Shown here piece after piece: positions 1 to 21,703 of a DNA stretch of 64,000 nt. A program made the position numbers and the translations under genes. Each line of letters begins with the position of its first letter. The first letter of the stretch is position 1. Source of the DNA: a plasmid; the sequence record NZ_CP094333.1; one strand, 5' to 3'. Below the pieces are notes generated by a model. That model had not been told where the DNA came from, made no database searches, and worked only from the letters and a program-made list of their open reading frames with translations.

Positions 1-700
1 CAGCCAGCGCCCGCATAAATTCCGGTGATACAGAGTCCCCTGCGTTAACGATGTAATGAATCAGAACACGCACCTGCTCGTCTGAAATTTCCACCATGAC
101 CTGCGGGAGTTTGTCCAGCAGCTCCATCATGTCACGATGGCGGATATGCTTCATCAGCAGCGTCAGTGCGGCCATCCGGCGATGGTTCATGATTTCATTG
201 TCATCAACGACAGTGATATCAACCAGCGGAAACGGCTTTGTGTATATTTTAGCCGCAAGCGCCGGATTCTCAAAACAGTCCAGCCAGTTCATGCTGTACG
301 GGTACGGGCTGCGCTCACCGTGATAGAACAGCACCGGAATGACCAGTGGCAACGTTTTGTGCTGCTCCAGATGTCTCTGCATCGCCGCCACACTGTAACG
401 TAACATGCGGAAAGGCATGTACAGATTTTCGGTGCTCTGGTGCTCGATGAGCGTATAAACATAGCCATCTTCACCCCCGGTGGTTTTCACACTCCAGAGG
501 ATATCGCTGGCGTACTGATGCAGGTCCGGCTCAACAAAGGTGGCGGGTTCCAGCTTCAGCGTGGACAGGTCGCACAACTGCCGGTACTCCGCCGGAAGAT
601 GCAGTTCCAGAAAATCTCTGGCGACGTCGGGATTCGCCAGGAACGACCGGAACGCGGCATCATGCGGCGTGGGCGTCGTGGTGGTTTTCTTCTTACTCAC
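1..700 (-). CDS. Rpn-family recombination-promoting nuclease (YhgA-like PDDEXK_7 transposase-like), 5' part present, 3' end beyond window
   Basis: Minus-strand translation starts GTG at 700 with AGGAGG SD and reads [55 protein letters not shown]..., the typical Rpn/YhgA N-terminus. The plus-strand ORFs at 96-715 are antisense artefacts. Confidence 0.7.
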
Positions 701-764
701 GGTTCCTCCTGGTGAGATGTCTGAACGTATCCTGCCGCCTGCACAGGCAGACGGCAAGGGTTAA

Positions 765-1031
765 TCAGTGGCAGACCCGCTCAATTTCAAGCGCGCGGAG
801 CAGGTGGCCCCATTCGCTGACTTTCATAGCGGGGATACGCACCCGCTTCTGCTCACTGCAGCGTCTGGCGATATGGCCGCTCATCGCCAGGACGTCCGGG
901 TTAATCTCATCCTGTGCCAGCTCCTGACGTCTGAAGCGGGTATGGCGGTGCAGGGGTTTATTCTCCCGCAGGCACTCTTCACGCAGACGCTTTACATACT
1001 CGGCGGTTGCGAAGATAATTGATGGTCTCAT
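765..1031 (-). CDS. hypothetical small protein (88 aa)
   Basis: ORF with GGAG SD upstream. No recognisable motif. A competing plus-strand ORF 768-1022 covers the same DNA. Confidence 0.3.
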   Translation of the reverse strand: MRPSIIFATAEYVKRLREECLRENKPLHRHTRFRRQELAQDEINPDVLAMSGHIARRCSEQKRVRIPAMKVSEWGHLLRALEIERVCH

Positions 1032-1124
1032 GGCATAATCTCCATAGATAGTGATTGAGATGCCGGACTTCCTGGCGGGGAAGCGCCGGCGGAGAGAGGC
1101 AGGGTTTATCGCCCTGCCTTTTTT

Positions 1125-1559
1125 TCATTTCGGACAGCGACGCAGTGCCAGCGCGAGCGCTTTCATCTTCCAGCCTTCCGGCGTGCGGTACATCACCTTC
1201 CAGTAGCCGTCGATGAACACATAATGGAAGCGCACCTCTTCAGTGCTTTCAGTGGCAATAGCCTCCCTGAAAGAACGGTACTCACGCGCCTCACTGTCCA
1301 TCCGGAAACCACTGTCACGTCCGTAATAAGCCGTCACACCGTCCACCGGGTTCTGAAGCGTATGCCCGGCGGGTTTGTCGCAACGGGGACCGAGGCAACG
1401 GATATCACCGTGTTCAACCAGGGCTTCGGCCTGCTGACCGGTGGCATAGTGGGTATGCAGGATGCGACCGTTCCAGGTCGGCTCCCCGTGCAGGTGGCAG
1501 TAAACGGTACGGAACACCCCGTCGCGGCAAAAAACGGAAATCGTGCTGCTGACTGTCAT
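1125..1559 (-). CDS. leading-region hypothetical protein (144 aa) directly downstream of an ssi-like repeat
   Basis: Clean ORF. Positioned like ardA, klcA and ssb, immediately 3' of a long non-coding repeat (family 1 copy A). No family recognised with confidence. Confidence 0.5.
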   Translation of the reverse strand: MTVSSTISVFCRDGVFRTVYCHLHGEPTWNGRILHTHYATGQQAEALVEHGDIRCLGPRCDKPAGHTLQNPVDGVTAYYGRDSGFRMDSEAREYRSFREAIATESTEEVRFHYVFIDGYWKVMYRTPEGWKMKALALALRRCPK

Positions 1560-1579
1560 GAAAACGTCTCCTTCTGCTG

Positions 1580-2265
1580 AATCAGGTCGCCGGGCCGACC
1601 GGTTGCTCCCCGGAGGGGCGAAAGCCCCTTCTGCCGTCCACTTCTTCGGGGTTTCTCCCCGCAGTGGACCTTTCCGATGGGGCGTCCGTCACCACGTCAC
1701 GGGGCAGCTGTCCGGGGGCGGACGCAAAATTTTTTGCCGGGTTTATGGCTAAAAATTTTGTGGACGGTATATCTTCCCCTGGACTGCTGAAACGGGATGT
1801 GGTTACTCCAGCCCCCGGAAAGTCCACAGCGGGAAACAGGCCGCAGGGGTGGCGGCGGAAGGGTTGACTGCGCCATCAGGCGCAGTGGCCTTACACACCG
1901 TCAGGTGTGCAGGGAGCGCCGTTTCCGGCGCGACAGGGGCGGCGCGACCGGAACGGTCGCTGCAAGCCTGGTTTTTCAGACATCGGACCGTAGCGGCAGC
2001 CCGAAACCGCGCCAGCGGGTTCGGCGGAGACTGGCGGGTGCGCCAGCAGCTGCCTGTCGGAGTCGGGCCTGACGACCGGATGCCGCCAGGCAGCCGGGAG
2101 CCGAAGGTGTCCCCGCCTCCGGAAATCAGAACAACAGAAACGACATAACAGAAAAATGCCTCACACCATGACGGGCAGGAAGGGCAGCGCCGCAGGCGCG
2201 GCCCTCCTGCATTTCAGGCAGGCGTAAGCCTGCCAGGGTTTTCCGGCGGCCTGGCAGGCCATACC
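1580..2265. repeat. leading-region non-coding repeat family 1, copy A (candidate ssDNA promoter/ssi-Frpo-like element)
   Basis: About 90% identical to 13325-13823 and, for its 3' end, to 16250-16345. For example ccgcagtggacctttccgatgggg occurs at about 1655 and about 13365. No conserved ORF; the track ORFs differ between copies. Confidence 0.6.
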
Positions 2266-2287
2266 CCCGCCGGAGCGGGGGAGTAAA

Positions 2288-2788
2288 TCACCGACGGAAC
2301 ACATGACCGTCAATAAAGGTGAAGGAGTCCAGGAATAAATCCCGCGCATACGCCTCATAGTCAAAATAGAGCGCCACCGTCTCCGGCACGTCAGCCAGCA
2401 GGCCGGTATCACTGGCGAACTCAACCGCAAAAGCCTCCTCACTGTCAGCCTCGCCCCACCAGGCATCGCGGAAGGTGTCAAAATCCGTCTCACCGGTATC
2501 CTCCACCCAGAGACGATAAGCCTCTTCGCAGCCTTCATCCCGTGCCAGGCGGAAGCCTTCAACCCAGGCCCAGTTGATATGGCATTCAGAGGCCATATTC
2601 CCCGGGAATCCCTCATAATCCTGAAACATCAGTTCAGGATCGGCTTCATCCTGGTGAAGAGCACGGCAGGCGGCGAAAAAGTCGCGCTCATCATCAAACG
2701 TGGTCAGGTCAAACCAGCGTCCGGCGATGCTTCCACAGTTGTATTTGTGCCAGGTTCCAACGTATACAGCAGGTGCAACAACAGACAT
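2288..2788 (-). CDS. ardA: antirestriction protein ArdA (166 aa)
   Basis: [33 protein letters not shown]...FIDGHVFRR is near-identical to ColIb-P9 ArdA. A GGAGG SD lies 8 nt upstream of the ATG at 2788. The longer track ORF (to 3178) runs into the repeat. Confidence 0.9.
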
Positions 2789-2809
2789 TCCCGAATCCTC
2801 CATAGTCAC

Positions 2810-3145
2810 ATGTTCTGCGACACCGGGCGGTGCCGTGCCTCCATAAAAGCCGGGCGATAAGGCGGGGATGCAGGGGCGCAAGGGAAGCCGCAGCCTGACG
2901 CACACGGCTGACGGGAGTTGCAGGGTGAGGCCGCGAAACCTGAGCGGACGAACGACCGGAAAATCACGGCAGACGGGAAGGAGGGACCGGGTGACCGCAG
3001 CGGCGAAGCGTACCCTTGCATCCCTGCCAGCCCGGCTAAGATGGAGGCACGGCACAGCCCGCACACGACGCTGAGGCCACAGAGCTGAAACCCCACAAGG
3101 CCATGCCCCGCATGGCCGGGTAAAAGCGGAGCCGCCGGCGACTTC
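2810..3145. repeat. leading-region non-coding repeat family 2, copy A (directly 5' of ardA)
   Basis: About 95% identical to 17462-17800 (ccataaaagccgggcga..ggcggggatgcaggggcgcaagggaagccgcagcctgacgcacacggctg...). It abuts the ardA start. Confidence 0.6.
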
Positions 3146-3387
3146 CTTATTCCGGCGAGTGCAGAGGACACGCCGCATGACCTCCAGACCACCCCTGATA
3201 TGAAACGATCATGATCGGCGTGTCCCTGCGTAAAATATACATGCCTGGTTCACCGGAGAATATCTGTGATATCCACAAGTTTTCTGTCGCGCAGCCAGTC
3301 CTGCGCTTCACGCACCACACAACTGTCCGGTTTCACCGCTTTCAGCGATGATGCCAGTCGCTTGATCAACATCACCAGTTCCCGTGT

Positions 3388-3879
3388 CTATATGTCCGGC
3401 ATTGTCTCCGGCGGAGCAGGGGGACTCTCATTTCCGACGCTCATCCCATGCGCTTCCAGTGTGGCACGGACAAACCAGGCGGCATCGACCAGTTGCTGTC
3501 CAATCCAGGCCAGATCGGCATTTCTGTCACGGGCTGCCATTCGCTCGCCCGACAGCGCCTTGCTGATATGGCTGCGCACCAGATTATCCAGGAGTGCCTG
3601 CGCTTCTTCCGGTGAAAAGCCACCTGGTATCTCTGTGCGCAACAGCCCTTTCCTGTACAGAAGCTGCAGCAGATCAACCTGCGACCGCACAGCAACTATC
3701 AGTACATAACGGACAACATTCGCACTGGCAGTGGTTTCTGTATCATTCAGCAGTTCTTCCGGATCGTTCCCCCCGGTGTTGCAGAGCAACGGCAACAGAG
3801 GTCGCATCCACGCGGGAACCTGGTATTTTTCGTCTGATTTCATCATATTACGTTCTCCAGCTTGTTCGGGATCATCCAC
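3388..3879 (-). CDS. hypothetical leading-region protein (about 150-163 aa)
   Basis: ORF between ardA and psiA. The start may be the internal MMKSDEKYQ. No motif recognised. Confidence 0.45.
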   Translation of the reverse strand: MDDPEQAGERNMMKSDEKYQVPAWMRPLLPLLCNTGGNDPEELLNDTETTASANVVRYVLIVAVRSQVDLLQLLYRKGLLRTEIPGGFSPEEAQALLDNLVRSHISKALSGERMAARDRNADLAWIGQQLVDAAWFVRATLEAHGMSVGNESPPAPPETMPDI

Positions 3880-4562
3880 TGCTCAAGTGCACGTACCTGT
3901 ACCGGTGCACCACGACCGGCCTCACCGGCTTCAAAAATCAGCCGCCAGAGTGGTTCCTCCTGCCAGAAAAACCGGTCAAATGATGACAGTGATGGAAAAC
4001 GCCCGCACCACCCCCAGAAAATCGTTTCCAGATCATGCTCCTCAACAACACCAGACCAGCGGGACAACCAGCTTCCGACCGTGGCGGGAGTATGAAACGC
4101 AAGGTCAATCTGCGCCTGAGCAAAACATGTCTGGTATTCCAGTTCCCGTCGTTCTGCCTCACGTTCCCGCTGGCGGCTGTATTTCTGCTCTGTCAGCGTG
4201 GTTTTCTGACGACGACGCTCACCTTCACGAAAAGGCACGGACGGGAACAGACGGTGCCCCGCATCGGATGGCAGGGGAAGAACACAGACTTCCCCAAAAC
4301 TTTCAATCAGTTTATCCACGGCAGCCAGCCACAGGAGACGGTTGCCATGAAATTCCTCCTTCGTCAGCGCAGGGGCAAAAAAGCGGAGATCGGTCAGCGA
4401 AATCCGGCGACTGCCATTCAGGCAGCGAAAGAAAGCGGTGGCATAAGGCCATGCTGAAAGTGTGCGTCCCTGACGACGACGTTGTTCTGTGACAGCCACC
4501 GCCTGCATGGCGGCCTGTTGTTCTGCGCTGAGGGGGATCAGTGCCCGTGAACGTGCGCTCAT
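3843..4562 (-). CDS. psiA: plasmid SOS inhibition protein PsiA
   Basis: 239 aa, located downstream of psiB, with PsiA-like sequence (…[53 protein letters not shown]…). Confidence 0.85.
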
Positions 4563-4996
4563 GCCTGACCTCCTTCTGCCATCAGGATATGGATGATGTC
4601 GTTAACACTGTATCCCTGCGCATCCAGTGTCGCGGCAAGCGCCAGCGTGTGACTGATCGCGGCAGGCGTGAAGATATGTTGCACCTGAACGACGGCGAAA
4701 GGCTGTCCACCACCATTCACCAGAACCAGCATCCAGAGCTGAGAGACGTCTCCCGGCGAACATAATGCCAGGTGGAAACGTTCGTGGGCTGGCGTGAAAC
4801 GAACCTGGACGGGGAAAAAGCCCCCGAACTCGCTGCCATACTCTCCGTTCATCATCCAGTTAGCCGGTGCGTCCACTTTACGCATCACCTCGTGAGTGAG
4901 ATTACGGCGCATATCGCTTCCCGCAGCACGGATTTCTTCATATTCCTGGGCATTCATGGACTGCAGGGCATTCAGTGTCAGTTCGGTATTCATCAT
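4559..4996 (-). CDS. psiB: plasmid SOS inhibition protein PsiB
   Basis: 145 aa: [28 protein letters not shown]...[36 protein letters not shown]...[16 protein letters not shown] matches PsiB. Confidence 0.9.
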
Positions 4997-5047
4997 CGTA
5001 TTTCTCCCTCTGCCGCCCCGTCTCCGGCGGGGCGGTGTGGTTGTTCA

Positions 5048-7012: not shown

Positions 7013-7064
7013 CCCCTTATAATTGCTTATGTCCTGCCGGACGTTCGCGCGTCCGGCACCTCTC

Positions 7065-7325: not shown

Positions 7326-7355
7326 AGGGCGGGGCGGTTGTCACAGTCAGCCCGA

Positions 7356-7844
7356 TCAGAACGGGATGTCGTCTGAAAACCCGTAATCCTCCCCCTCCGG
7401 CGGTTGCGGCTGAGGCTCTGGCTGCGCGGCCTTACGTCCACGGCCTTTCGTTTTCGCGCCACCTTTTTTCGTCGCGTCAGCACTCTGTGGCTGCCCATTC
7501 TGCTGAGGCTTCGGTTGCGCCTGAGCGTTCTGCTGTGGTGCACGTCCCAGCATCTGCACGGTGCCCGTGGTCTTAACAAGAATTTCAGTGACGTAACGGG
7601 TGATACCGTTATCTTCCCAGCTACGGGTGCGAAGCTGACCTTCGATGTAGACCTGCGCACCCTTGCACAGATATTCACCTGCCACTTCCGCGAGCTTGCC
7701 GAACAGCACCACGCGGTGCCATTCCGTCTGCTCCCGCATCTCCCCCGTCTGTTTGTCACGCCAGCTTTCTGATGTGGCCACCTGCAGGTTTGCCACTGCG
7801 CCCCCGTTGGGGATGTAACGGACTTCCGGATCATTGCCCAGACG
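7356..7844 (-). CDS. ssb: single-stranded DNA-binding protein SSB, exon 2 (codons 14-end)
   Basis: Minus-strand translation [58 protein letters not shown]...GFSDDIPF is F-plasmid-type SSB from residue 14 on. Upstream of codon R14 the frame diverges into intron sequence ending ...ccctac. Confidence 0.85.
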
Positions 7845-7990
7845 GTAGGGTAGGGTACGTGTGGTCTTTCAAGATAAATGGCGAATATGTCCTGCTTATC
7901 TTGAGTTAGATCACCGTTACCCCCCCTCCGAACCGTACGTGCACCTTTCAATGCATACGGCTCTCCATTGCTAGCTTATTGGGGATAAAC

Positions 7991-9892
7991 TCATTTAGCA
8001 GAATCCCCACTTGAGACAGGTGGTTGCAGGAGTATTCTTCCCTTTTCCTGTCTCAGATCGGGTAGTTTTCCGCTATGTAACTTGTCGTGGCAACTTGCGC
8101 ACAAAATCATCGTTTTCCGGCGGCGTGCGATCATCATTAGTTGCCACAGGCTGGGTTTATATCCGGCCTTACGACCTTTCTTCAGGTCTTTTAGCTTTCT
8201 GACATGATGTACTTCGCAGCGCCCAGTCTTCGCACAATACTCGCAGATCCTTGCCCCTAATCGACGCATGATCTCTGTTGTGCGGGTTGTGATATGTGCG
8301 GTTCTCGGTTCCGTATCGACAATCGTTGTTCGGTTGCGATTGACATGTTTGAGTTTGAAAACCTCAATCTTTCGGGATCCATTTTTGGCCTGAACGGTAA
8401 TAGCCAGATCTCCATTATTTTGCCGTAGCGATTTGGCGACTTTATTCACTGAACTACGTCGTTTATTCGCTAGGGTCTTAAAAAGGCTTATTTGCCATAT
8501 GAAATATAATTTTGATAATTTATATTTCATGTCCAGCGCCAGACTGTAGTAGTTCGCCAATCCGCGCATTTCCGCGTTGAAAGTCAGAACAATTTCAGCT
8601 TCACTGAGATTTTGTAGACTTGAACGATGTACAGCCTTCACATTCTCATAACAGCCATATTTCTTTTGGTGACAAAATTTAGCGGCTATATTGTCAGGAA
8701 CGAAGAGCTGCACAATTCCTGTGGTGGATCTCCGGAGAGCGTGCCGCCCTTGCATTTTCTGCTTCAGCAATTTCTTTGCATCTGCCTGTCTGATTTCATA
8801 GCCTAAAAAATTAACTCCTTCTGAGATATGGCGGATCCTGGTCTTTGCTTCATTAACTTCCAATCCCAGTGAAGTAGTAATAAAGTTTCTGACCTGTCTT
8901 GATATATGTTCAGCATCTTTCTTCGAGCCGATGACACCAATTACGAAGTCATCAGCATATCGAACATAGTACATACGCCTGAAGTTTGGATCGTTCATGA
9001 CCTGAGATGGTATAGAACGTTTTTCTTCAAGCAGTCGTTCAATTTCTTTCTTTATGGCTTCTTTTTCTGATTCAGAATCAGTTGCCATACCGTCTACTTT
9101 CTTTCGTAGTTTATGAATCTTATGGGCCAGCCTGTTCATATCTGGATTCGCTCTTCGTTTTGTACCGCTTGTATATGCAGGAATTAAGTTCTGTTCTACA
9201 AAACGGTCCAGTTTGTCGAGGTATATATTTGCCAGTAAGGGAGAAATTATCCCACCTTGTGGCGTGCCAGAATATGAGCGATGGTATTTCCAATTGTCCA
9301 CATATCCTGCCTTCAGCCACTGTTCGATTAATTTCAGGAAATTCTTATCCTTAATTTTCTCTGCCAGTGTATTCAGCAATAGTTTGTGGGGGATATTGTC
9401 AAAGAAACCTTTGATATCAACATCCACGATCCATTTAACTCCGTTCCAGACTGGACGAATAGATCTGAGCGCAGTTTCACACGAACGTTTTGGTCTGAAT
9501 CCATGAGAGTGTTCAGAGAATACTGGTTCATAAACCCTTTCCAGAATAATTCTTGCTACTTCTTGCGCCAGTTTATCGTCTCCACCTGGAATCCCCAGCG
9601 GTCTGGTTTTTCCGTCCTTTTTTGGGATCTGAACTCTGCGTACAGGTTTCGCTACGTATTCTCTACTCCGCAATGTTTTTGCCAGCTTCTCTGCTCTTTC
9701 GATAGAGAAGCCATCAATGGTATCTGTTGATACACCTTGAGTCAGTGCACCTGCATTGGCCCGTATATTCACGTAGGCTTGCAGCCACAGTCCGGGCTCA
9801 CACGCAATTTTGTATAGATTACGTACTGGATACCCTTTTTTTGAAGCATCCTCAATTCCATCTAATCTTTTCTCAAGTTCATCAGGCAGCAT
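7991..9892 (-). CDS. group II intron-encoded protein (reverse transcriptase/maturase/HNH endonuclease, 633 aa)
   Basis: RT motifs (…RPLGIPGGDDKLAQEV…, YVRYADDFVIGV), a maturase X region, and a C-terminal Zn-finger/HNH region (CEYCAKTGRCEVHHVRKLKDLKK…CASCHDKLHSG). Confidence 0.9.
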   Translation of the reverse strand: MLPDELEKRLDGIEDASKKGYPVRNLYKIACEPGLWLQAYVNIRANAGALTQGVSTDTIDGFSIERAEKLAKTLRSREYVAKPVRRVQIPKKDGKTRPLGIPGGDDKLAQEVARIILERVYEPVFSEHSHGFRPKRSCETALRSIRPVWNGVKWIVDVDIKGFFDNIPHKLLLNTLAEKIKDKNFLKLIEQWLKAGYVDNWKYHRSYSGTPQGGIISPLLANIYLDKLDRFVEQNLIPAYTSGTKRRANPDMNRLAHKIHKLRKKVDGMATDSESEKEAIKKEIERLLEEKRSIPSQVMNDPNFRRMYYVRYADDFVIGVIGSKKDAEHISRQVRNFITTSLGLEVNEAKTRIRHISEGVNFLGYEIRQADAKKLLKQKMQGRHALRRSTTGIVQLFVPDNIAAKFCHQKKYGCYENVKAVHRSSLQNLSEAEIVLTFNAEMRGLANYYSLALDMKYKLSKLYFIWQISLFKTLANKRRSSVNKVAKSLRQNNGDLAITVQAKNGSRKIEVFKLKHVNRNRTTIVDTEPRTAHITTRTTEIMRRLGARICEYCAKTGRCEVHHVRKLKDLKKGRKAGYKPSLWQLMMIARRRKTMILCASCHDKLHSGKLPDLRQEKGRILLQPPVSSGDSAK

Positions 9893-10385
9893 TGGCTAAC
9901 CCTCCTCTTAGAGATTGATGTATCTAACAACTGTCTCCCTTCCCCGCAGCACTGTGAGGCTTTCATCTCCCTTCCGGTTGATTTATACCTTTGCTGCTTC
10001 CGTATAATGCGGACTGCCGTAGCCCATTACAGGCCGACCTTGAGTACTATGGAGACTCCGCTACCATGCTGGGTATAAATCCAGTTTAGGTAGTCCCGTA
10101 GTTTCACGGTGTGGAGATGCGATGTACTTAGGATGTCTTTCGATCGTTTAACTATTTCATCAATAGCTGGCCCGTTAGAGTGGTCACAATCAACGTAGGG
10201 CGGATTTCTTGTGCTATTACGGGAATAACGCTTCAATCGTTCTGCGTTATTGGTTTCCTGTTTCCCACATAGATCTCGACTTCAACAAACCCAGTTTATC
10301 CATATACATCTTGCATTGAGTGGTGATACTTAGTAACCGGCTCATTTAAACCGTCTGGTCTGTTTCCTCCGGCTCTACAAAAATA

Positions 10386-11063
10386 ATGTCCATCATTTTT
10401 AATGGACACTATCGTATGAAACACCGGACCTGGATCACTGAAGCTTTACGTCTTCACTTTGAAGAACATTTACCCCGGGTTGTGGCCGGGCGTCGCCTGG
10501 GTGTACCAAAATCAACAGTTTGTAGTATGTTCGTGCGCTTTCGGAGAGCTGGCCTTTCGTGGCCTTTGCCCGCAGGCATGTCGGAGCAGGAACTTGATGC
10601 CTGCCTTTACGGACAATTTTCCACGGTACCAGTCGTACGTCCTGAAAGCACCGTTATATCCGAAGCCCCCATGGTAAAAAAACGTCCCCGGCGGCCCAAC
10701 TTCCCTTATGAGTTTAAAATCGCCTTAGTGGAGCAGTCACTGCAGCCCGGAGCCTGTGTGGCGCAGATCGCCCGGGAAAACGGAATCAACGATAACCTGC
10801 TCTTCAACTGGCGCCATCAATACCGGAAAGGTGGCCTGCTGCCTTCCGGAAAAAATATGCCGGCACTGCTTCCCGTGACGTTAACGCCGGAGCCGGATAA
10901 TAAAATCCCGGCCCCCGCACAGGAACCAGAGCAGATAAATACACCGTCCGACAGTCTGTGTTGTGAGCTGGTTCTGCCGGCCGGAACTCTCAGGCTTAAA
11001 GGTAAACTGACGCCGGCGTTATTACAGACACTTATCCGCGAAATAAAAGGGAGCAGCCACTGA
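10386..11063 (+). CDS. tnpA: IS66-family accessory protein TnpA (orf1)
   Basis: The C-terminal half (…KKRPRRPNFPYEFKIALVEQSLQPGACVAQIARENGINDNLLFNWRHQYRKGG…) is IS66 orf1-like. The N-terminal part has an HTH resembling IS21 IstA (AGLSWPLPAGMSEQELDACLY). The true start is probably MKHRTW at 10416. Confidence 0.7.
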   Translation: MSIIFNGHYRMKHRTWITEALRLHFEEHLPRVVAGRRLGVPKSTVCSMFVRFRRAGLSWPLPAGMSEQELDACLYGQFSTVPVVRPESTVISEAPMVKKRPRRPNFPYEFKIALVEQSLQPGACVAQIARENGINDNLLFNWRHQYRKGGLLPSGKNMPALLPVTLTPEPDNKIPAPAQEPEQINTPSDSLCCELVLPAGTLRLKGKLTPALLQTLIREIKGSSH

Positions 11064-11410
11064 TGATATCTCTCCCTGCAGGTTCGCGTATCTGGCTGGT
11101 TGCAGGTATCACCGATATGCGAAATGGCTTTAACGGCCTGGCATCAAAAGTTCAGAACGTCCTGAAGGATGACCCGTTCTCCGGACACCTGTTCATCTTC
11201 CGCGGACGCCGGGGTGACCAGATAAAAGTGTTGTGGGCTGACAGTGACGGACTGTGCCTCTTCACCAAACGCCTGGAGCGGGGCCGCTTCGTCTGGCCAG
11301 TCACCCGTGACGGCAAGGTGCACCTTACTCCGGCTCAGTTATCCATGCTTCTTGAAGGTATCAACTGGAAGCACCCGAAACGAACGGAACGCGCTGGAAT
11401 CCGCATATAA
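11063..11410 (+). CDS. tnpB: IS66-family TnpB (orf2, 115 aa)
   Basis: MISLPAGSRIWLVAGITDMRNGFNGLASKVQNVLKDDPFSGHLFIFRGRRGDQIKVLWADSDGLCLFTKRLERGRFVWP is the highly conserved IS66 orf2. Confidence 0.9.
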   Translation: MISLPAGSRIWLVAGITDMRNGFNGLASKVQNVLKDDPFSGHLFIFRGRRGDQIKVLWADSDGLCLFTKRLERGRFVWPVTRDGKVHLTPAQLSMLLEGINWKHPKRTERAGIRI

Positions 11411-11429
11411 CCCGTTGTAAAGTGAGGAT

Positions 11430-13001
11430 ATGGACACCTCACTTGCTCATGAGAACGCCCGCCTGCGGGCACTGTTGCAGACGCAACAGGACACCATCCG
11501 CCAGATGGCTGAATACAACCGCCTGCTCTCACAGCGGGTGGCGGCTTATGCTTCCGAAATCAACCGGCTGAAGGCGCTGGTTGCGAAACTGCAACGTATG
11601 CAGTTCGGTAAAAGCTCAGAAAAACTTCGTGCAAAAACCGAACGGCAGATACAGGAAGCACAGGAGCGAATCAGCGCACTTCAGGAAGAAATGGCGGAAA
11701 CGCTGGGTGAGCAATATGACCCGGTACTGCCATCCGCCCTGCGCCAGTCTTCAGCCCGTAAACCGTTACCGGCCTCACTTCCCCGTGAAACCCGGGTTAT
11801 CCGGCCGGAAGAGGAATGCTGTCCTGCCTGTGGTGGTGAACTCAGTTCTCTGGGATGTGATGTGTCAGAGCAACTGGAGCTTATCAGCAGCGCCTTTAAG
11901 GTTATCGAAACACAACGTCCGAAACAGGCCTGTTGCCGGTGCGACCATATCGTGCAGGCACCAGTACCTTCAAAACCCATTGCACGCAGTTATGCCGGAG
12001 CGGGGCTTCTGGCCCATGTTGTCACCGGGAAATATGCAGACCATCTGCCGTTATACCGCCAGTCAGAAATATACCGTCGTCAGGGAGTGGAGCTGAGCCG
12101 TGCCACACTGGGGCGCTGGACAGGTGCTGTTGCTGAACTGCTGGAGCCGCTGTATGACGTCCTGCGCCAGTATGTGCTGATGCCCGGTAAAGTCCATGCT
12201 GATGATATCCCCGTCCCGGTCCAGGAGCCGGGCAGCGGTAAAACCCGGACAGCCCGGCTGTGGGTCTACGTCCGTGATGACCGTAACGCCGGTTCACAGA
12301 TGCCCCCGGCGGTCTGGTTCGCGTACAGTCCGGACCGGAAAGGTATCCATCCACAAAATCACCTGGCCGGTTACAGCGGTGTGCTTCAGGCCGATGCTTA
12401 CGGTGGTTACCGGGCGTTATACGAATCCGGCAGAATAACGGAAGCCGCGTGTATGGCTCATGCCCGGAGAAAAATCCACGATGTGCATGCAAGAGCGCCC
12501 ACCTACATCACCACGGAAGCCCTGCAGCGTATCGGTGAACTGTATGCCATCGAGGCAGAGGTCCGGGGCTGTTCAGCAGAACAGCGTCTGGCGGCAAGAA
12601 AAGCCAGAGCCGCGCCACTGATGCAGTCACTGTATGACTGGATACAGCAACAGATGAAAACACTGTCGCGTCACTCAGATACGGCAAAAGCGTTCGCATA
12701 CCTGCTGAAACAGTGGGATGCACTGAACGTGTACTGCAGTAATGGCTGGGTGGAAATCGACAACAACATCGCAGAGAACGCCTTACGGGGAGTGGCCGTA
12801 GGCCGGAAAAACTGGATGTTCGCGGGTTCCGACAGCGGTGGTGAACATGCGGCGGTGTTGTACTCGCTGATCGGCACATGCCGTCTGAACAATGTGGAGC
12901 CAGAAAAGTGGCTGCGTTACGTCATTGAACATATCCAGGACTGGCCGGCAAACCGGGTACGCGATCTGTTGCCCTGGAAAGTTGATCTGAGCTCTCAGTA
13001 A
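11430..13001 (+). CDS. tnpC: IS66-family transposase TnpC (orf3, 523 aa)
   Basis: Leucine-zipper N-terminus, a CxxC…CxxC zinc finger (CPACGGEL…CCRCDH), and the DDE core typical of IS66 TnpC. Confidence 0.9.
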
Positions 13002-13212
13002 ATATCAATACGGTTCTGACGAGTCGCTTACGATACTTATAACGATTTCCGTATTCACCACCCTTTTCTGTGGATGCTATGTTCACCTCTCCTTTTCAGG
13101 ATCTCCGAGCCTGTTACCAAGCGAGGCTAACCACAGTATGCAATGGCTATACCACTAAGCCATGTTGCTTTTCATGCAACACTCCATAAAACACCGCGCT
13201 TCAACGGCGCAC

Positions 13213-13251
13213 CCCGACGAGGATGACCTTGTTGATACCACGTGCACTCAT
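13213..13251 (-). CDS. ssb: SSB exon 1 (codons 1-13: MSARGINKVILVG)
   Basis: The reverse complement of 13213-13251 is atgagtgcacgtggtatcaacaaggtcatcctcgtcggg, which translates to MSARGINKVILVG. It is followed immediately by gtgcgcc, a group II intron 5' consensus. Joined to exon 2 it gives ...[26 protein letters not shown], identical in pattern to F SSB. Confidence 0.7.
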
Positions 13252-13324
13252 AAGAACCTCCTGACTGAAAGATGTGAGATAAACCGGATACCGGCGACGG
13301 GACGTTCATGTGCCCCTTCAGAGG

Positions 13325-13823
13325 AGCGAAAGCTCCTCCTGCCGTCCACTTCACAGGGGTTTCTCCCCGCAGTGGACCTTTCCGATGGGGGCCCGTTTAC
13401 CGCCTCACGGGACAGCTGCCCGGGGGCGGACGCAAAATTTTTAGCCGGGTTCATGGCTAAAAATTTTGTGGCCGGTGCATCTCACCCTGGACAGATGGAA
13501 CGGGAGGGGGTTACGTCTGCCCCCCGGAAAGTCCACAGCGGGAAACAGGCCGCAGGGGTGGCGGCAGGAGGGAAGACTGCTGCGCCATCAGGCGCAGTTT
13601 CCTCACACACCGTCAGGTGTGCAGGGAGCGCAGGTCACGGCGCGACAGGGGCGGCGCGACCGGAACGGTCGCTGCAAGCCGGGTTTTCACGCATCGGACC
13701 GTAGCGGCAGCCCGAAACCGCGCCAGCGGGTTCGGCGGAGACTGGCGGGTGCGCCAGCAGCTGCCTGTCGGAGTCGGGCCTGACGACCGGATGCCGCCAG
13801 GCAGCCGGGAGCCGAAGTGGGCG
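13325..13823. repeat. leading-region repeat family 1, copy B (5' part), directly 5' of ssb exon 1. It is interrupted at 13823/13824 by group II intron 2.
   Basis: Aligns with 1620-2117 of copy A. The alignment breaks after gcagccgggagccgaag, where GTGCGAC begins. Confidence 0.6.
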
Positions 13824-16170
13824 GTGCGACAGGAAGTCGCTTAACGTATTGTTTTACATTGATAAAACCAGCTATCCCATTAGCTGTAGCCTACCGGGAC
13901 AGGCGCTGCCGGCAACGGCGGGGTCTGAAGCTCCCGGGACAACGAGAGCCGGGCGTCAGCCCGGGTAAAGCCCCGTGAGGGGCTTTACCTTGCTGCAAGC
14001 ATCATGTGGCAGGAGAGCAAGGCTGGTCAGAAGGGTTAACACATGTGAACTGTTGATAAACACCGTTATCGGCAACAGGCCAAAGATGCTGACAGGCCTG
14101 AACCAAAAGGTACGGGGTCCGGTTGCTACCTCGCGCACAGGGAGCACATGGGCGCAGAGACCCCCGGTGAAGAGACAGAACCCGCCCTGACCCTCTGTAT
14201 GTTAAGCGGAACCTGGTAAACCCGTATCGCTGCCTTACAGGCAGGTGAACCGTAAGGAACACTGTAGGCGGTGCGGGCAGAGGAGGACGGAAAAAGCAAA
14301 TGCCCGGTTGTAATGACCGGGATACGGGGCAGGTTCCCCGACGCGAAAGCGGGCAGACTTCCGTCTGGTCTTTAATTGCATGAAAAGCTGTAAAGCAGTC
14401 AAAAGGATATCAGCGAGATGAATACACACATCAGTGTGTCCACGATACCCCACCCGACAGGCTGGCACACCATAGACTGGAAAGCATGCCATGCCCGGGT
14501 GCGAAAGCTACAGTTACGGATTGCAAAGGCAACCCGACAGCAACAATGGCGGCAGGTCAGAGAACTACAGCGCATCCTCACCCGCTCATTCTCCGGCAAA
14601 GCCGTGGCTGTCAGGCGTGTAACTGAAAATACCGGTAAAAGGACACCCGGTATTGACGGAAAAATATGGCACACACCGAAGGAGAAATGGGAAGGAATAT
14701 GCAGCCTGAATCTGTGTGGTTACAGGCCACAGCCACTACGGCGAATACATATCCCAAAATCAAACGGCAAAACGCGACCGCTGGGCATACCCACAATGAG
14801 GGACCGGGCCATGCAGGCACTGTGGCTGCTGGCTCTGGAACCCGTATCCGAGACCACTGCTGACCATAACAGCTATGGTTTCAGACCAATGCGCAGCACG
14901 CATGACGCCATTGAGTCCATTTTTCTGCGGATGAGCCAGAAAGTATCGCCCAAATGGATACTGGAGGGCGATATTAAAGGGTGTTTCGATAACATCAGCC
15001 ATGACTGGCTGCTTTCCCATATTCCGATGGACAGGAGACTGCTTAAAAAATGGTTGAAAGCAGGTTACATGGAAAGAGGCGTGTTTAACCATACGAACAG
15101 CGGGACACCGCAGGGAGGCATCATATCCCCTGTTCTCGCCAACATGGCTCTGGACGGACTGGAGAAGGAACTGATGCAAACGTTCAGGAAAAGTGGTTAT
15201 CACAGTGCAAAGCACCAGGTGAATTATGTGAGATATGCTGATGATTTCATCTGTTCAGGCAGCTCCCGTGAATTGCTGGAAAATGAGGTCAGACCACTGA
15301 TTGCAGCTTTCATGCGCGAACGAGGGCTGGAACTGTCGGAAGAAAAAACCGCGATTACACATATAGATAAAGGCTTCGACTTTTTAGGGCAGAACGTCAG
15401 GAAGTACAACGGTAAAATGCTGATTAAACCGTCGAAGAAAAACCTGAAGAACTTCCTCTGTAAAGTCAGAGAAATAATTAAACGCAATCCGACGCTCCCG
15501 GCATGGAAACTGATAGGCCAGCTAAACCCGGTAATCCGGGGATGGGCTACCTATCACCGACACGTCGTGGCGAAAGAAACATTTAATTATGTCGACACCC
15601 AAATCTGGCGAGCTATATGGCGATGGTGTGTAAGAAGGCACCCCCGAAAAGGATTGCGGTGGATCGCCGGACGATACTTCTCCTTTGAAGGCAGGCGCTG
15701 GATCTTTAAAGCCATAACCCCGGAAGGGAAAATTCTGACTCTCTTCCGGGCAATGGAAACACCGATAAAGCGCCATATAAAAATCAAAGGCGAAGCAACA
15801 CCATACACCCCCGGAATGGAAATCTACTTTGAACGTCGTCTGGATCTAATCTGGAAAGGCAAATCAAAGAAGATGAAGACAGTAGTTCAACTCTGGAAGA
15901 GGCAGGGGAAACACTGTCCGCAGTGCGGACAACCCATAACCAACCAGACCGGATGGAATATACATCACCGGATCAGGAAAGTTATGGGCGGCAGTGACGA
16001 ACTGACCAATCTCGAGTTGTTACATCCGAACTGCCACCGACAGTTACACAGCAGGGAAGCCGGTGCTCACCGAAAGCACTTATAAAGGCTTGAGCGGAGT
16101 GCGGGGAAACTCGCACGCTCCGTTCTTAGGGGGCGGCGGCGCAGCAATGTGCCGCTGCTACCCGACCAAT
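13824..16170 (+). mobile_element. group II intron 2 (different lineage from intron 1) inserted in repeat family 1 copy B
   Basis: 5' GTGCGAC at 13824. IEP 14418-16085. Domain V GAGCGGAGTGCGGGGAAACTCGCACGCTCCGTTC at 16093-16126. The 3' boundary is approximate (16160-16250); repeat homology resumes near 16250. Confidence 0.7.
14418..16085 (+). CDS. group II intron-encoded reverse transcriptase/maturase with HNH endonuclease domain (555 aa)
   Basis: RT blocks (…RPLGIPTMRDRAMQ…, YVRYADDFICSG), domain X, and a C-terminal CPQCG…HHRIRKVMGGSDELTNLELLHPNCHRQLHS. Confidence 0.9.
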   Translation: MNTHISVSTIPHPTGWHTIDWKACHARVRKLQLRIAKATRQQQWRQVRELQRILTRSFSGKAVAVRRVTENTGKRTPGIDGKIWHTPKEKWEGICSLNLCGYRPQPLRRIHIPKSNGKTRPLGIPTMRDRAMQALWLLALEPVSETTADHNSYGFRPMRSTHDAIESIFLRMSQKVSPKWILEGDIKGCFDNISHDWLLSHIPMDRRLLKKWLKAGYMERGVFNHTNSGTPQGGIISPVLANMALDGLEKELMQTFRKSGYHSAKHQVNYVRYADDFICSGSSRELLENEVRPLIAAFMRERGLELSEEKTAITHIDKGFDFLGQNVRKYNGKMLIKPSKKNLKNFLCKVREIIKRNPTLPAWKLIGQLNPVIRGWATYHRHVVAKETFNYVDTQIWRAIWRWCVRRHPRKGLRWIAGRYFSFEGRRWIFKAITPEGKILTLFRAMETPIKRHIKIKGEATPYTPGMEIYFERRLDLIWKGKSKKMKTVVQLWKRQGKHCPQCGQPITNQTGWNIHHRIRKVMGGSDELTNLELLHPNCHRQLHSREAGAHRKHL

Positions 16171-16249: not shown

Positions 16250-16345
16250 CGGAAAGCCGGGCCGGCAGCGCCGCAGGCGCTGCACCCCGCATTTCCGGCA
16301 GGCGTCAGCCTGCCAGGGGTTTTCGCGCGGGCTGACAGGCGGCCT
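16250..16345. repeat. leading-region repeat family 1, copy B (3' part, downstream of intron 2)
   Basis: gggccggcagcgccgcaggcgctgcaccccgcatttccggcaggcgtcagcctgccagggg matches 2175-2260 of copy A. Confidence 0.5.
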
Positions 16346-17019: not shown

Positions 17020-17445
17020 TCAGTCCAGAGCCGCGTAAATCGCGTTGCATTCAGGGTGAAATTCGATGTGACGCCACAACTGCGCATCGCGCATCCGGTA
17101 AAGCTGGGTCAGTCCTGCATCCCCGCTGTCGTGGTACAGCCACAACTGGCGGTTAATCACAAGGGAGGTAAGGATGATGCCTGAGGCATCAGCACTCACG
17201 GTACGGTCAAACCAGTTTGCACCGTTCACCATGTGGAAACGGTCACCGTCCGGCATCATGTAACCGCCACCGTCCGGCAGGCGGATGAAGTGCCAGAAGC
17301 CGCCCTGATATTCCGGCATCATTTTTTGCGCCAGCGCGTACACATACGCCTCGGCATACAGAAAATCGTTGCCAAACAGATACGGCAGAAAGGAGAGACG
17401 GTCGCACTCTTCAACGTTCAGAGTGACAGGTTTCGCATATTGCAT
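17020..17445 (-). CDS. klcA: antirestriction protein KlcA/ArdB family (141 aa)
   Basis: …[51 protein letters not shown]…[21 protein letters not shown]… matches the KlcA/ArdB fold family. Confidence 0.85.
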
Positions 17446-17461
17446 GATGTTTTCCTCCGTT

Positions 17462-17800
17462 GTTCACATATTCCGCGACACCGGGCGGTGCCGTGCCTCC
17501 ATAAAAGCCGGGCGAACAGGCGGGGATGCAGGGGCGCAAGGGAAGCCGCAGCCTGACGCACACGGCTGGCGGGAGTTGCAGGGTGAGGCCGCGAAACCTG
17601 AGCGGGCGAACGACCGGAAAATCACGGCAGACGGGAAGGAGGGACCGGGTGACCGCAGCGGCGAAGCGTACCCTTGCATCAACGCCAGCCCGGCTAAGAT
17701 GGAGGCACGGCACAGCCCGCACACGGCGCTGAGGCCACATAACTGAAAACCCATAAGGCCATGCCCGCATGGCCGGGTAAAGCGGAGCCGGCGGCGACGT
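17462..17800. repeat. leading-region repeat family 2, copy B (directly 5' of klcA)
   Basis: About 95% identical to 2810-3145. The track ORFs 17411-17857 and 17464-17754 are translations of this repeat. Confidence 0.6.
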
Positions 17801-17856
17801 CCTTTGTGCTCTGTCCGGGACCGGCAGGAAAAAGGCGGGGATTTTCCCCGCCATCA

Positions 17857-20416: not shown

Positions 20417-21388
20417 TCATCCCCCGTAATGCGCCACCTTGTCGACTATCCACGCAGGTCCTGTGACTTCCGGCAGCTCATCGTCATCTGTCGGGGAAGA
20501 CCATTCCAGTTCCCCCCACAGCACATCAACGAGCTCTCCGCGCTCATACAACTGCCAGCCACAGAAATTGCAGCCCTGTTCGGCGTACCAGTGCTCCAGC
20601 GTGCAGCCGAAACGGCGGCTTAATGCTGCAACAACGTCGCTTTCCGGCTGACACCACGGCGTGTCGAAATCAACCTGAATGAAGTTGTCTCCCTGACTAC
20701 TGATATTCAGGTCATACCCACAAGGCCACTTCACGCCATACCGTTCTGTATACCAGTGATATGCAGAAGGAACACCGTTCAGAACACCACCATTAAAGCC
20801 ATTCACTTCAACATCCAGGCGGGTCGGCAGAACCGTCAGCAGGTCAAACGGCATGGTTTTTTCCGGCAGTACGTTGTCACACAGACGGTTCCACCACACC
20901 GATACATCCTCGTTACCCCAGATGTCACACCAGTCACCTCTTTTTGCGGTGAAATGCACAGTGATAGTTTCCCTGACATCATCCGGTAACTCTTCCCAGC
21001 GACGCTGTCCAGTACCGCTCTGCAGCCAGAGTTCATGCAGCATCAGGCAGTTTTGCTCATCCAGCAGTACACCGTTCTGCAGGTGTGTCAGCCAGCGGGT
21101 GAACGCGATATTTTCCGGTGATACAGCACCACGTCCGGCAACCGTCACTCCGGGGCACTGCTCAGAGCGGATATTTTCAGTGATCTGCAGAAGTCCGGCA
21201 CTTCCGGCCAGAAACAGCTGAATACCTTCATTTGTGGCGCGGCGATAAAGCGGTGTGACTGCACCGCTGGCCAGTCGTTTAATCTCAGCGATCTGTGCTG
21301 GTTCACCAGAAAAATACATACGATTCGAGCACCAGTTTGGCATGGGAATTCTCCTCTCACATGCGGCCTCCATCAGGCCGTGCCGCAC
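20417..21388 (-). CDS. hypothetical leading-region protein (about 300-323 aa, Trp/Cys-rich)
   Basis: Long ORF. The start may be the internal MPNWCSNRMYF. No catalytic motif recognised. Confidence 0.55.
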   Translation of the reverse strand: MRHGLMEAACERRIPMPNWCSNRMYFSGEPAQIAEIKRLASGAVTPLYRRATNEGIQLFLAGSAGLLQITENIRSEQCPGVTVAGRGAVSPENIAFTRWLTHLQNGVLLDEQNCLMLHELWLQSGTGQRRWEELPDDVRETITVHFTAKRGDWCDIWGNEDVSVWWNRLCDNVLPEKTMPFDLLTVLPTRLDVEVNGFNGGVLNGVPSAYHWYTERYGVKWPCGYDLNISSQGDNFIQVDFDTPWCQPESDVVAALSRRFGCTLEHWYAEQGCNFCGWQLYERGELVDVLWGELEWSSPTDDDELPEVTGPAWIVDKVAHYGG

Positions 21389-21703
21389 CTGTAACCGGGC
21401 GACCGCATACGAATGCAGGTGCGGCCCCGAAGCCGCAGCGCGTGGAGGAGGAACGACGAAACGTGACCGGGTGAGGAGGCCGGCGACAGCGACACACTTG
21501 CATCGGATGCAGCCCGGTTAACGTGCCGGCACGGCCTGGGTAACCAGGTATTTTGTCCACAGAACCGTGCGCAAAATGCTGTGGATAAGCTGGACACAGC
21601 AGTCCACAGCAGGCATACAGCCACACGCTCAGAGAATTGAGCGTTTTTTAGTCACAATAATGACATTTGACTGTGTGTGGATTCAGTTATTAGAATACTG
21701 TAT

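Follow-up and report, generated by a model that had tools for sequence, protein, structure and literature searches.

The DNA analysed here, called the window throughout, is a 64,000-nt stretch of plasmid (record NZ_CP094333.1, one strand read 5' to 3'); it is an IncI1/I-gamma leading region, of which the + strand is the one transferred. Positions 1-7844 match the IncI-gamma/K1 plasmid pCTXM14_020022 at 100% identity; that plasmid has nikA/nikB and its oriT inverted repeat about 2 kb leftward of the region matching the window. Synteny with pCTXM14_020022 and pESBL places nikA and oriT to the left of the window, and the leading genes within it are all on the - strand. The R64-type nick motif, which we take to be CATCCTGTC, gave no match in a motif search at the oriT of the I-gamma/K-type plasmid, where the inverted repeat is present and the nick-region sequence differs from the R64 type; the strand is accordingly assigned from synteny and literature. 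The assignment leans also on earlier work on the leading region, here as quoted in later papers (Bates, 1999). An Rfam scan of the whole window at the gathering threshold matched introns, PK-repZ, C4 and the attI leader, and no family corresponding to either of the repeats described below. The promoter ssi1 falls outside the window.

The genes and repeats of the region are listed in Table 1. For the 144-aa ORF, Pfam and NCBIfam give nothing, the only family hits being to phrog_1987 and phrog_23089, two families of unknown function; against solved structures its matches stay at chance level (E ~0.9). The gene ssb is split: its first exon reads ATG AGT GCA ... GTC GGG and runs directly into the group II intron 5' consensus GTGCG. 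That intron carries an Rfam Intron_gpII match (7845-7965, - strand) and an RT/maturase/HNH ORF (7991-9892), and is itself interrupted at 10333-13031 by an IS66-family element with TnpA/TnpB/TnpC ORFs, flanked by the 8-bp duplication GATACTTA, the ends and the duplication being read from the sequence. The intron within Family 1 copy B matches Rfam group-II-D1D4-7 at 13868-14017 and Intron_gpII at 16090-16166, and its reverse-transcriptase ORF (14418-16085, 555 aa) is annotated ltrA in pCTXM14_020022. Two group II introns and one IS66-family element inside 9 kb mark the region as a hotspot of mobile DNA.

Table 1. Features of the leading region in window coordinates; promoter assignments follow from the basis given in the last column.
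Feature	Position	Strand	Basis
144-aa ORF, first gene downstream of ssi2	1125..1559	-	ORF list; hypothetical protein WP_000218863 in pCTXM14_020022
ssi2, class 1 (Frpo-type) ssDNA promoter, Family 1 copy A core	1611..1936	+	homology, fold
Family 1 copy A extension block 1, GC-rich multi-hairpin	1937..2106	+	common to copy B, alignment
Family 1 copy A extension block 2	2183..2259	+	self-match to 16264-16340
ardA, anti-restriction gene, class 2 promoter to its right	2288..2788	-	Pfam ArdA E = 2.8e-29; pCTXM14_020022 annotation
Family 2 copy A, class 2 ssDNA promoter of ardA	2796..3148	+	homology, fold, covariation
ssb exon 2, gene body	7356..7844	-	100% collinear with annotated ssb, pCTXM14_020022
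Insertion in ssb, 5368 nt, group II intron oriented as ssb	7845..13212	-	absent from pCTXM14_020022
ssb exon 1, first 13 codons, directly downstream of ssi3	13213..13251	-	collinear with intact ssb, pCTXM14_020022
ssi3, class 1 ssDNA promoter, Family 1 copy B core	13318..13648	+	homology, fold
Family 1 copy B extension block 1	13649..13817	+	self-match, alignment
Group II intron splitting Family 1 copy B extension, opposite to leading genes	13868..16166	+	Rfam, ORF
Family 1 copy B extension block 2	16264..16340	+	self-match, alignment
klcA/ardB-type anti-restriction gene	17020..17445	-	Pfam Antirestrict E = 8e-26
Family 2 copy B, class 2 ssDNA promoter of klcA/ardB operon, F ssp2 homologue	17453..17804	+	homology, fold
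Apex-shortened Family 2 relative, 167-nt hairpin	21374..21540	+	nhmmer, fold, box positions, alignment, covariation

Self-BLAST of the window confirms the two families of long repeats that an earlier, sequence-only reading of this DNA had placed here, and refines their coordinates. Family 1 pairs 1613-2106 with 13321-13817 (90.4% over 499 columns, 7 gaps, E = 0) and, in a second block, 2183-2259 with 16264-16340 (85.9% over 78 columns, E = 2e-18), while Family 2 pairs 2796-3148 with 17453-17804 (94.1% over 354 columns, E = 7e-154); there is no match between the families. That the repeats are non-coding, as had also been proposed, is consistent with the absence of any Pfam match among the 10 ORFs overlapping them, with the single-base indels that separate the copies, and with sequence change that tracks base pairing and not reading frame. 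All four copies abut the start of a minus-strand gene as claimed, the Family 2 copies lying 8 nt from the ATG of ardA (2788) and of klcA/ardB (17445), the ssi2 core 52 nt from that of the 144-aa ORF (1559) and the ssi3 core 67 nt from that of ssb (13251), but in the last case everything beyond the first 13 codons of the gene lies past the 5368-nt insertion. An origin as IS, MITE or degraded gene was considered and rejected: no transposase or protein-family match, terminal inverted repeats or conserved frame were found, Pfam on the 10 ORFs gave nothing pointing to an IS or coding origin, and the inverted repeats of both families are internal hairpin arms, not termini. The label 'DUF1472', an ORF annotation over the class 2 element in some database records, was discarded as well, current Pfam matching none of the overlapping ORFs.

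To judge from their sequence, the Family 1 cores are ColIb-P9 ssi2 and ssi3 themselves, which goes beyond mere likeness to Frpo. The core of copy A is 99.7% identical over 326 nt to ColIb-P9 ssi2 ('Frpo2', AJ238399:4353-4678) and that of copy B 99.1% identical over 331 nt to ssi3 ('Frpo3', AJ238399:11381-11711); identity of the cores to ColIb-P9 ssi1 is 79-82%, and that of the central hairpin to F ssiD/Frpo 74%. Folded as + strand DNA, the ssi2 region 1560-1940 reaches z = -7.1 and ssi3 z = -9.0, no shuffle folding as well in either case, and the + strands of the class 1 elements, with 4-7 G-T pairs, fold 12.5-13 kcal/mol better than their - strands (13 kcal/mol for ssi2). A simple hexamer consensus scan of the class 1 3' arm found no convincing TTGACA/TATAAT pair at 16-18 nt spacing; what is present is a 9-nt bulge containing TATATC/TATCTT, together with a conserved CCCTGGAC. 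The placement of the class 1 -35 and -10 boxes therefore rests on published work, reportedly that of Masai and Arai from 1997 and of Nasim et al. from 2004. Calling the entire Family 1 repeats candidate Frpo/ssi-like promoters, as the sequence-only reading did, holds for the cores, but only about 330 nt of each copy correspond to the published promoter.

The remaining ~250 nt of each Family 1 copy are outside what the promoter model explains. Extension block 1 is common to both copies and absent from ssi1, and conservation of its first ~40 nt amounts to 92-95% beside F Frpo1 and Frpo2 and to 79-94% in the Frpo*5 and Frpo*7 of Samuel; the extension region 1937-2287 folds with z = -6.0. Block 1, partly common to F Frpo1/Frpo2, may be an undescribed functional module on class 1 promoters. 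In copy A, block 2 lies directly 3' of the ardA stop codon, and in copy B it holds the same place behind the ORF that closes the klcA operon (16363-16554); F conserves part of it at 85%, directly 3' of the homologous 192-nt ORF. We infer that block 2 probably represents the 3' end, or terminator region, of the operon upstream. A terminator scan of the Family 1 extension found none, and the extension hairpins are without proper T-runs, so that the word terminator is to be taken in this inferential sense.

Family 2 retains the single-stranded-DNA promoter role that had been proposed for it, but not the proposed likeness to Frpo: its sequence is not homologous to Frpo and matches a separate published class, class 2/ssp2, which does the same job. 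Each copy is near-identical to its counterpart in pESBL-EA11, 5' of ardA or of klcA, the four-way alignment of window and pESBL copies having 94% mean column identity. Identity of the family to Samuel's candidate Frpo'4 is 82-84% (84% for the ardA copy), that of the ardA copy to F ssp2 is 93.5%, and that of the klcA copy to the F sequence directly 5' of the antirestriction gene (yfgB) is 94.9% over 375 nt. The + strand folds reach z = -5.2 for the ardA copy and z = -3.4 for the klcA copy, again with no shuffle folding as well, and across both families all four elements are 10-13 kcal/mol stabler as + strand than as - strand. The ardA hairpin spans 2824-3061, with its -35 box TTGCAT (3016-3021) and -10 box TAAGAT (3037-3042) both on the 3' arm and a small flanking hairpin at 3099-3117; the klcA hairpin spans 17482-17719, with boxes at 17674-17679 and 17695-17700. 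Each is 238 nt long, with a dG of -74 to -75 kcal/mol. TTGCAT lies in a fully paired helix, followed after a 15-nt spacer by TAAGAT, whose three central bases sit inside a conserved 3x3 internal loop, and after the -10 box comes a 15-bp perfect helix that would hold the +1. The predicted start pairs with template T2836 at the ardA hairpin and with template T17494 at the klcA hairpin, the exact +1 being likewise a prediction in both. The spacer measures 15 nt on the non-template arm vs 19 nt on the template arm, which is unusual for sigma-70, and the boxes are weak against consensus (3/6 for -35, 4/6 for -10). Stable + strand hairpins carrying promoter hexamers, on which the case for single-strand promoters had been made to depend, thus exist, and a promoter scan of 1000-3400 found no conventional double-strand sigma-70 consensus promoter.

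Conservation of the class 2 hairpin was examined in an alignment of eight elements from E. coli, an insect metagenome, Erwinia, Acerihabitans, Klebsiella and Pantoea. Paired cells amount to 95.3%, compared with 33-38% when the partners are slid, and 31 of the 66 pairs are changed on both sides, compared with 2-8 after sliding, values reached by none of 500 shuffles; at the level of sequence, this strong covariation shows that the hairpin is kept across six genera. In Erwinia, Acerihabitans, Klebsiella and Pantoea, the element likewise stands directly 5' of ArdA or KlcA/ArdB homologues. A pattern scan of the genome collection with GCCCGGCTA-N9-CACGGC was set aside, most of its matches being chance in GC-rich genomes; the true homologues, later recovered with nhmmer, are a handful of Enterobacterales loci.

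A third relative of Family 2, missing from the list of the sequence-only reading, lies upstream of a DUF1281-hyp-DNA methylase operon. It is matched collinearly by the class 2 profile in nhmmer (E = 3e-5 and 2e-7) and by a short-variant profile (E = 2e-12), folds with z = -5.3 and dG -50 kcal/mol, and carries TTGCAT (21498-21503), a 15-nt spacer and TAACGT (21519-21524). Its counterpart in F shows 96.8% identity, and the hairpin probably represents, by sequence and position, the published class 3/ssp3 promoter, which holds the same place relative to the methylase operon of M.EcoGIX (Wen et al., 2025). That paper describes class 3 as unlike all others (PMC12672017); in contrast, by profile search and alignment the element at 21374-21540 has both basal arms and the box layout of class 2, without ~70 nt of apex. 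The two have in common the motifs GCCGTG...CGGGCG...AAGCCGCAG...GACCGGGTGA...CTTG...GCCCGGyTA...GGCACGGC, both basal arms and the layout TTGCAT-15 nt-TAnnnT. Promoter strength of ssp3 is similar to that of ssp2, and ssp3 has no roadblock activity (bioRxiv 10.64898/2026.01.09.698686, hereafter the 2026 preprint). We tentatively suggest, as a possibility that falls somewhat short of an even case, that class 3/ssp3 is an apex-truncated homologue of class 2/ssp2. If this homology held, the lack of a roadblock in ssp3 would make the ~70-nt class 2 apex a candidate roadblock determinant, and classes 2 and 3 would form a single family with the apical extension as a modular add-on.

Both repeat families are, in all likelihood, leading-region single-stranded-DNA promoters; the identity to published elements, the strand-specific hairpins, the placement of the class 2 boxes and the covariation are observations of the present analysis. 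During conjugation the + strand of the window would reach the recipient first, in single-stranded form, and each element would fold back into a long imperfect hairpin, the stem of which would rebuild a double-stranded sigma-70 promoter. The 3' arm would act as the non-template strand, carrying the -35 and -10 boxes read from loop to base, and the 5' arm as the template, so that host RNA polymerase would start within the basal helix and run leftwards out of the hairpin into the adjoining minus-strand genes. Synthesis of the complementary strand would then flatten the hairpin and silence the promoter, leaving a transient burst of expression. Under this scheme, ssi2 would drive the operon of the 144-aa ORF leftwards, the ardA class 2 hairpin would drive ardA, ssi3 would drive ssb, psiB and psiA, and the klcA class 2 hairpin would drive klcA/ardB and its two downstream ORFs. 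Promoter activity confined to ssDNA, start sites, zygotic induction, priming and roadblock are taken by analogy from the literature, and the promoter role in this plasmid would accordingly be read from its sequence and from experiments on other plasmids. The output of ssi3 normally destined for ssb may be lost here, given the 5.4 kb of intron and IS66-family element in between, which would make this plasmid a natural variant with the ssi3-ssb link broken by a nested intron/IS insertion.

The same hairpins could serve other ends. It is possible, though unlikely, that they are mainly single-strand initiation sites, the hairpin RNA staying hybridised and priming the complementary strand, with gene expression as a by-product. 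The very name ssi derives from a single-strand initiation assay, Frpo RNA has been used as a primer (Masai and Arai, 1997, in the summaries of PMC12672017 and PMC7736820), and early conversion near ssp1 promoters is rifampicin-sensitive in vivo (2026 preprint). Priming is, however, compatible with promoter function and not an alternative to it; deletion of Frpo1 or Frpo2 is published to abolish early protein from the downstream genes, the elements each stand precisely 5' of an operon templated by the transferred strand, and class 2 is reported to block synthesis, not to prime it (2026 preprint). That block is the core of another proposal, which we hold to be distinctly unlikely, namely that Family 2 is chiefly a structural barrier, a GC-rich hairpin that stalls the complementary strand and keeps the oriT-proximal genes single-stranded longer, promoter activity being secondary. 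In F, the 3' end of the stalled strand has been located at the foot of the ssp2 stem, UvrD relieves the stall, and deletion of ssp2 speeds downstream conversion and halves PsiB output (2026 preprint); the size and stability of the window hairpins, set against the 167 nt and -50 kcal/mol at 21374-21540, point the same way. Yet the roadblock is known for F ssp2 only, not for IncI1 or the ardA copy, 5' RACE and RNA-seq place transcription starts at the class 2 hairpins (PMC12672017), and a pure barrier would need neither the -35 and -10 boxes nor the internal loop at -10, all of which are conserved across genera.

That the repeats are inert leftovers, either mobile-element or gene remnants or else segmental duplications of recent date that recombination keeps similar, is very improbable. 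The hotspot of mobile DNA around them favours it, as do the ORFs annotated over the repeats in some database records ('DUF1472' among them) and Family 1 extension block 1, which appears more alike between copies than the core and could reflect gene conversion. Transposase and terminal-repeat features are nevertheless absent, the overlapping ORFs are without Pfam match, compensatory base changes preserve the fold in six genera, the elements of F, IncI1, Erwinia, Pantoea and Klebsiella all lie 5' of anti-restriction genes, and function has been demonstrated experimentally, in published work, for identical sequences. For the promoter cores, covariation and published experiments refute an inert origin, which may hold for the Family 1 extension blocks only.

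As both families are hairpin promoters that have already been published, the sequence-only reading was right, yet its finding is not new; it did recover both promoter classes from raw sequence. Hairpin promoters allow anti-restriction, SOS-inhibition and single-strand-binding functions to be expressed before the second strand is made, and such early expression helps resistance plasmids to settle in new hosts. This significance has been recognised and tested by experiment, reportedly by Bates in 1999 and Nasim in 2004, and by Couturier in 2023, Samuel in 2024, Wen in 2025 and the authors of the 2026 preprint. What the present analysis adds is modest: the class 2 hairpin is tested independently by covariation over six genera, a kinship of classes 2 and 3 is suggested, and a natural variant with an interrupted ssi3-ssb link is described.

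Compared with known systems, the Family 1 cores share their long hairpin on the transferred strand with ColIb-P9 ssi2/ssi3 and F Frpo1/Frpo2, and occupy the same positions as in ColIb-P9, ssi2 separating ardA from the operon next towards oriT, and ssi3 lying 5' of ssb. Class 1 ssDNA promoters are said to be known from Masai and Arai (1997), Bates et al. (1999), Nasim et al. (2004) and Couturier et al. (2023), and activity as ssDNA, silence as dsDNA and an early, transient transcription in transconjugants have been published for F Frpo1/2 and pESBL ssi1-3. The window differs in that the repeat runs ~170 nt beyond the published ~330-nt ssi (1937-2106) and resumes for ~77 nt (2183-2259), and in that its ssi3, unlike that of ColIb-P9, precedes an ssb split by an intron with an IS66-family element. 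In pESBL, according to Wen et al. (NAR 2025, PMC12672017), six operons are zygotically induced, each with a hairpin, all six start sites have been mapped by 5' RACE, and induction is prolonged when the recipient is a uvrD mutant; the hairpins fall into class 1 (ssi1-3), class 2 (5' of ardA and klcA) and class 3 (5' of M.EcoGIX). The early expression that had been predicted for the 144-aa ORF fits the zygotic induction and mapped start reported there for the ssi2 operon. In F, ssp2 acts as a roadblock to complementary-strand synthesis, and ssp1/Frpo transcripts act as primers (2026 preprint). A class 2 relative was first listed as the candidate Frpo'4 (Samuel et al., Nature 2024). Family 2 has the same genes downstream and the same -35/-10 hairpin as pESBL class 2 and F ssp2, and nothing substantive differs; compared with class 2, the ardA copy of the window has three spacer substitutions (CCCTGCC for CAACGCC), by which the stem gains two pairs.

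Window positions 1-7844 match the conjugative plasmid pCTXM14_020022 (IncI-gamma/K1) with 100.0% identity, and positions 13213-24000 match it with 99.97%. That plasmid has nikB, nikA and its oriT inverted repeat some 2 kb leftward of the point corresponding to window position 1, which makes the window leading region. The + strand of the window is the transferred strand and the template for its minus-strand leading genes, an arrangement that Bates 1999, as relayed by later papers, states for ColIb-P9. Elsewhere, Rfam matches an attI/aminoglycoside leader at 42555-42633, a sign of a class 1 integron; the IncI replicon's repZ pseudoknot at 51093-51241; and a C4 antisense RNA at 52094-52181.

Features of the window, with strand and basis (minus-strand genes in leading gene order)
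Feature	Position	Strand	Basis or detail
88-aa ORF, then 144-aa ORF	1125-1559 (144-aa ORF)	-	gene order
ardA	2288-2788	-	gene order
psiA, psiB, ParB-like gene, DUF905 gene, ssb		-	gene order, next block after ardA
63-aa ORF, DUF1380 gene, klcA/ardB	17020-17445 (klcA/ardB)	-	gene order
DNA methylase operon		-	last, after klcA/ardB
Insertion in ssb (intron + IS66-family element)	7845-13212	-	sequence comparison
RT/maturase/HNH ORF of ssb intron	7991-9892		protein-domain match
IS66-family element nested in ssb intron	10333-13031	+	8-bp target duplication GATACTTA
Group II intron in Family 1 copy B	13868-16166	+ (transferred-strand sense, opposite leading genes)	Rfam
555-aa ltrA-type ORF of that intron	14418-16085	+	ORF list
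Apex-shortened Family 2 relative	21374-21540	+	167 nt, dG -50 kcal/mol, TTGCAT-15 nt-TAACGT

Two families of long non-coding repeats had been proposed from the sequence as ssDNA promoters, and both are recovered when the window is compared with itself by BLAST, in agreement with a repeat search. Family 2 aligns 2796-3148 with 17453-17804 (94.1% identity, 354 columns, E = 7e-154); Family 1, drawn by the sequence-only reading as one stretch in its left-hand copy, falls into two blocks, 1613-2106 against 13321-13817 (90.4%, 499 columns) and 2183-2259 against 16264-16340 (85.9%). The same comparison gave no match between the two families. A non-coding status of the repeats is consistent with current Pfam, which matches none of the ORFs overlapping them, 2796-3148 and 17453-17804 included.

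Reference Frpo/ssi sequences, as listed by Samuel et al. (2024, supplementary file 4), were compared with the window by BLAST. Window 1611-1936 is 99.7% identical to ColIb-P9 ssi2 (AJ238399:4353-4678) over 326 nt, and 13318-13648 is 99.1% identical to ssi3 (AJ238399:11381-11711) over 331 nt; this near-identity makes the two cores of Family 1 members of the classic class 1 of ssDNA promoters. With ssi1, which lies outside the window (L001 17741-18069), they share 79-82% identity, and the hairpin at their centre shares 74% with F ssiD/Frpo. The 144-aa ORF downstream of ssi2 matches phrog_1987 (E = 5e-21) and phrog_23089, phage protein families without assigned function; it has no Pfam or NCBIfam match, and its PDB matches are at chance level only. 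Family 2 shares 82-84% identity with Frpo'4, a computationally predicted candidate (Samuel et al., 2024), and 93.5-95% with the stretch of F lying immediately 5' of the antirestriction gene yfgB; the family is almost the same in sequence as the regions upstream of ardA and of klcA in pESBL-EA11. Wen et al. (NAR 2025, PMC12672017) describe pESBL as having six operons induced zygotically; every one has a large hairpin that rebuilds -35/-10 boxes, and its start site was mapped by 5' RACE. In their scheme class 1 comprises ssi1-3 and the Frpo elements, class 2 the hairpins preceding ardA and klcA, which resemble each other, and class 3 the M.EcoGIX hairpin. The F homologue of Family 2 has been named ssp2 (2026 preprint, bioRxiv 10.64898/2026.01.09.698686).

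Folding of the transferred strand as ssDNA gave long hairpins in all four elements, with z = -7.1 for ssi2, -9.0 for ssi3, and -5.2 and -3.4 for the ardA and klcA copies of Family 2, the + strand being more stable than the - strand by 10-13 kcal/mol in each. The class 2 hairpin spans 238 nt (2824-3061 and 17482-17719; dG ~ -75 kcal/mol). On its 3' arm TTGCAT (3016-3021) lies inside a fully paired helix and is followed by a 15-nt spacer, the matching 5'-arm stretch being 19 nt, and then by TAAGAT (3037-3042), whose three central bases fall in a conserved 3x3 internal loop, and a perfect 15-bp helix. If transcription starts 7 nt past the -10 hexamer, as predicted, the paired template base would be T2836, or T17494 for klcA, and ardA would have a 48-nt leader. 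Within the spacer (3016-3036 against 17674-17694), the window's ardA copy carries CCCTGCC in place of the CAACGCC found in the klcA copy and in both elements of pESBL, a change that turns two hairpin mismatches into pairs. Divergent class 2 elements were recovered from Erwinia, Acerihabitans, Klebsiella and Pantoea, in which the downstream gene is an ArdA or KlcA/ArdB homologue. In the resulting alignment (n=8) 95.3% of cells pair, against 33-38% with the partners slid by 1-3 columns, and 31 of 66 pairs carry changes in both partners, where the slid controls have 2-8; none of 500 shuffles matched these values. A promoter scan of 1000-3400 found no double-strand sigma-70 consensus promoter. The match to published elements, the + strand hairpins and the class 2 covariation support the ssDNA-promoter interpretation.

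In some public records 'DUF1472 domain-containing protein' or hypothetical ORFs are annotated over the class 2 promoter; these gene calls are probably spurious, on a non-coding hairpin. The distal flank of Family 2 also holds a small GC-rich hairpin, GGCCATGC-CCC-GCATGGCC (3099-3117 and ~17757-17774), in the interval from the upstream operon's end to the class 2 hairpin. In Frpo'4, the relative from an insect metagenome, the same place is occupied by a hairpin of other stem sequence. A role as terminator or boundary element is possible, though the hairpin in the window lacks a clear T-run.

Family 1 copy B, the right-hand copy, is broken by a + strand group II intron (Rfam matches 13868-14017 and 16090-16166), and ssb is interrupted after 13 codons (13251-13213) by another, which starts with GTGCG and runs to 7845 in the same orientation as the gene. 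In PLSDB the junction between ssb and the intron is common (at least 476 records); the junction of the IS66-family element with the intron is in none. Since intron and IS66-family element interrupt ssb, ssi3 lies 5.4 kb from the ssb body, and its operon may be uncoupled here: should the interrupted intron be unable to splice, ssb, psiB and psiA would no longer be driven by ssi3 in this plasmid. Such a loss of output would be notable because, according to Benz et al. (2023), transfer rates in some hosts can rise when the ssi3 operon carries loss-of-function changes.

Both families have already been described and experimentally characterised in published work, and only two readings carry some novelty. 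One is the proposed relationship between class 2 and class 3. A third, apex-shortened copy related to Family 2 (21374-21540), not listed by the sequence-only reading, lies upstream of the DUF1281-hypothetical-DNA methylase operon, shares the class 2 box layout and is 96.8% identical to the corresponding F sequence; presumably it is the class 3 (ssp3) hairpin already in the literature. With the class 2 profile both of its arms are hit in collinear order (E = 3e-5 and 2e-7), and the three copies in the window all match a profile built from short variants (E = 1e-13, 1e-13 and 2e-12). In other genera the short variant lies directly 5' of the methylase gene. Class 3 has been described as unlike all other classes (Wen et al., PMC12672017); the profile matches suggest that the two classes share ancestry as distant homologues, and the apical extension of class 2 is a candidate for the module behind the roadblock, the stalling of complementary-strand synthesis reported for F ssp2. 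The other is the conserved Family 1 extension, by which the family exceeds the published ssi. Past the core, 1937-2106 is common to 13649-13817, followed by a divergent stretch and then by 2183-2259, common to 16264-16340. The first of these blocks is seemingly less divergent between copies than the promoter core, and the distal one, just 3' of the upstream operon's stop codon in both copies, may mark that operon's end. The extension folds as several short hairpins (z = -6.0), and a terminator scan found no canonical terminator in it. The copy B intron, which sits within this extension, is present in pCTXM14_020022 but absent from pESBL-EA11. Both extension blocks are lacking from ssi1. The first ~40 nt of the extension, including the hairpin GCGACCGGAACGGTCGC, are 92-95% conserved beside Frpo1 and Frpo2 in F, and also occur in the Salmonella Frpo-like candidates Frpo*5 and Frpo*7 of Samuel et al.
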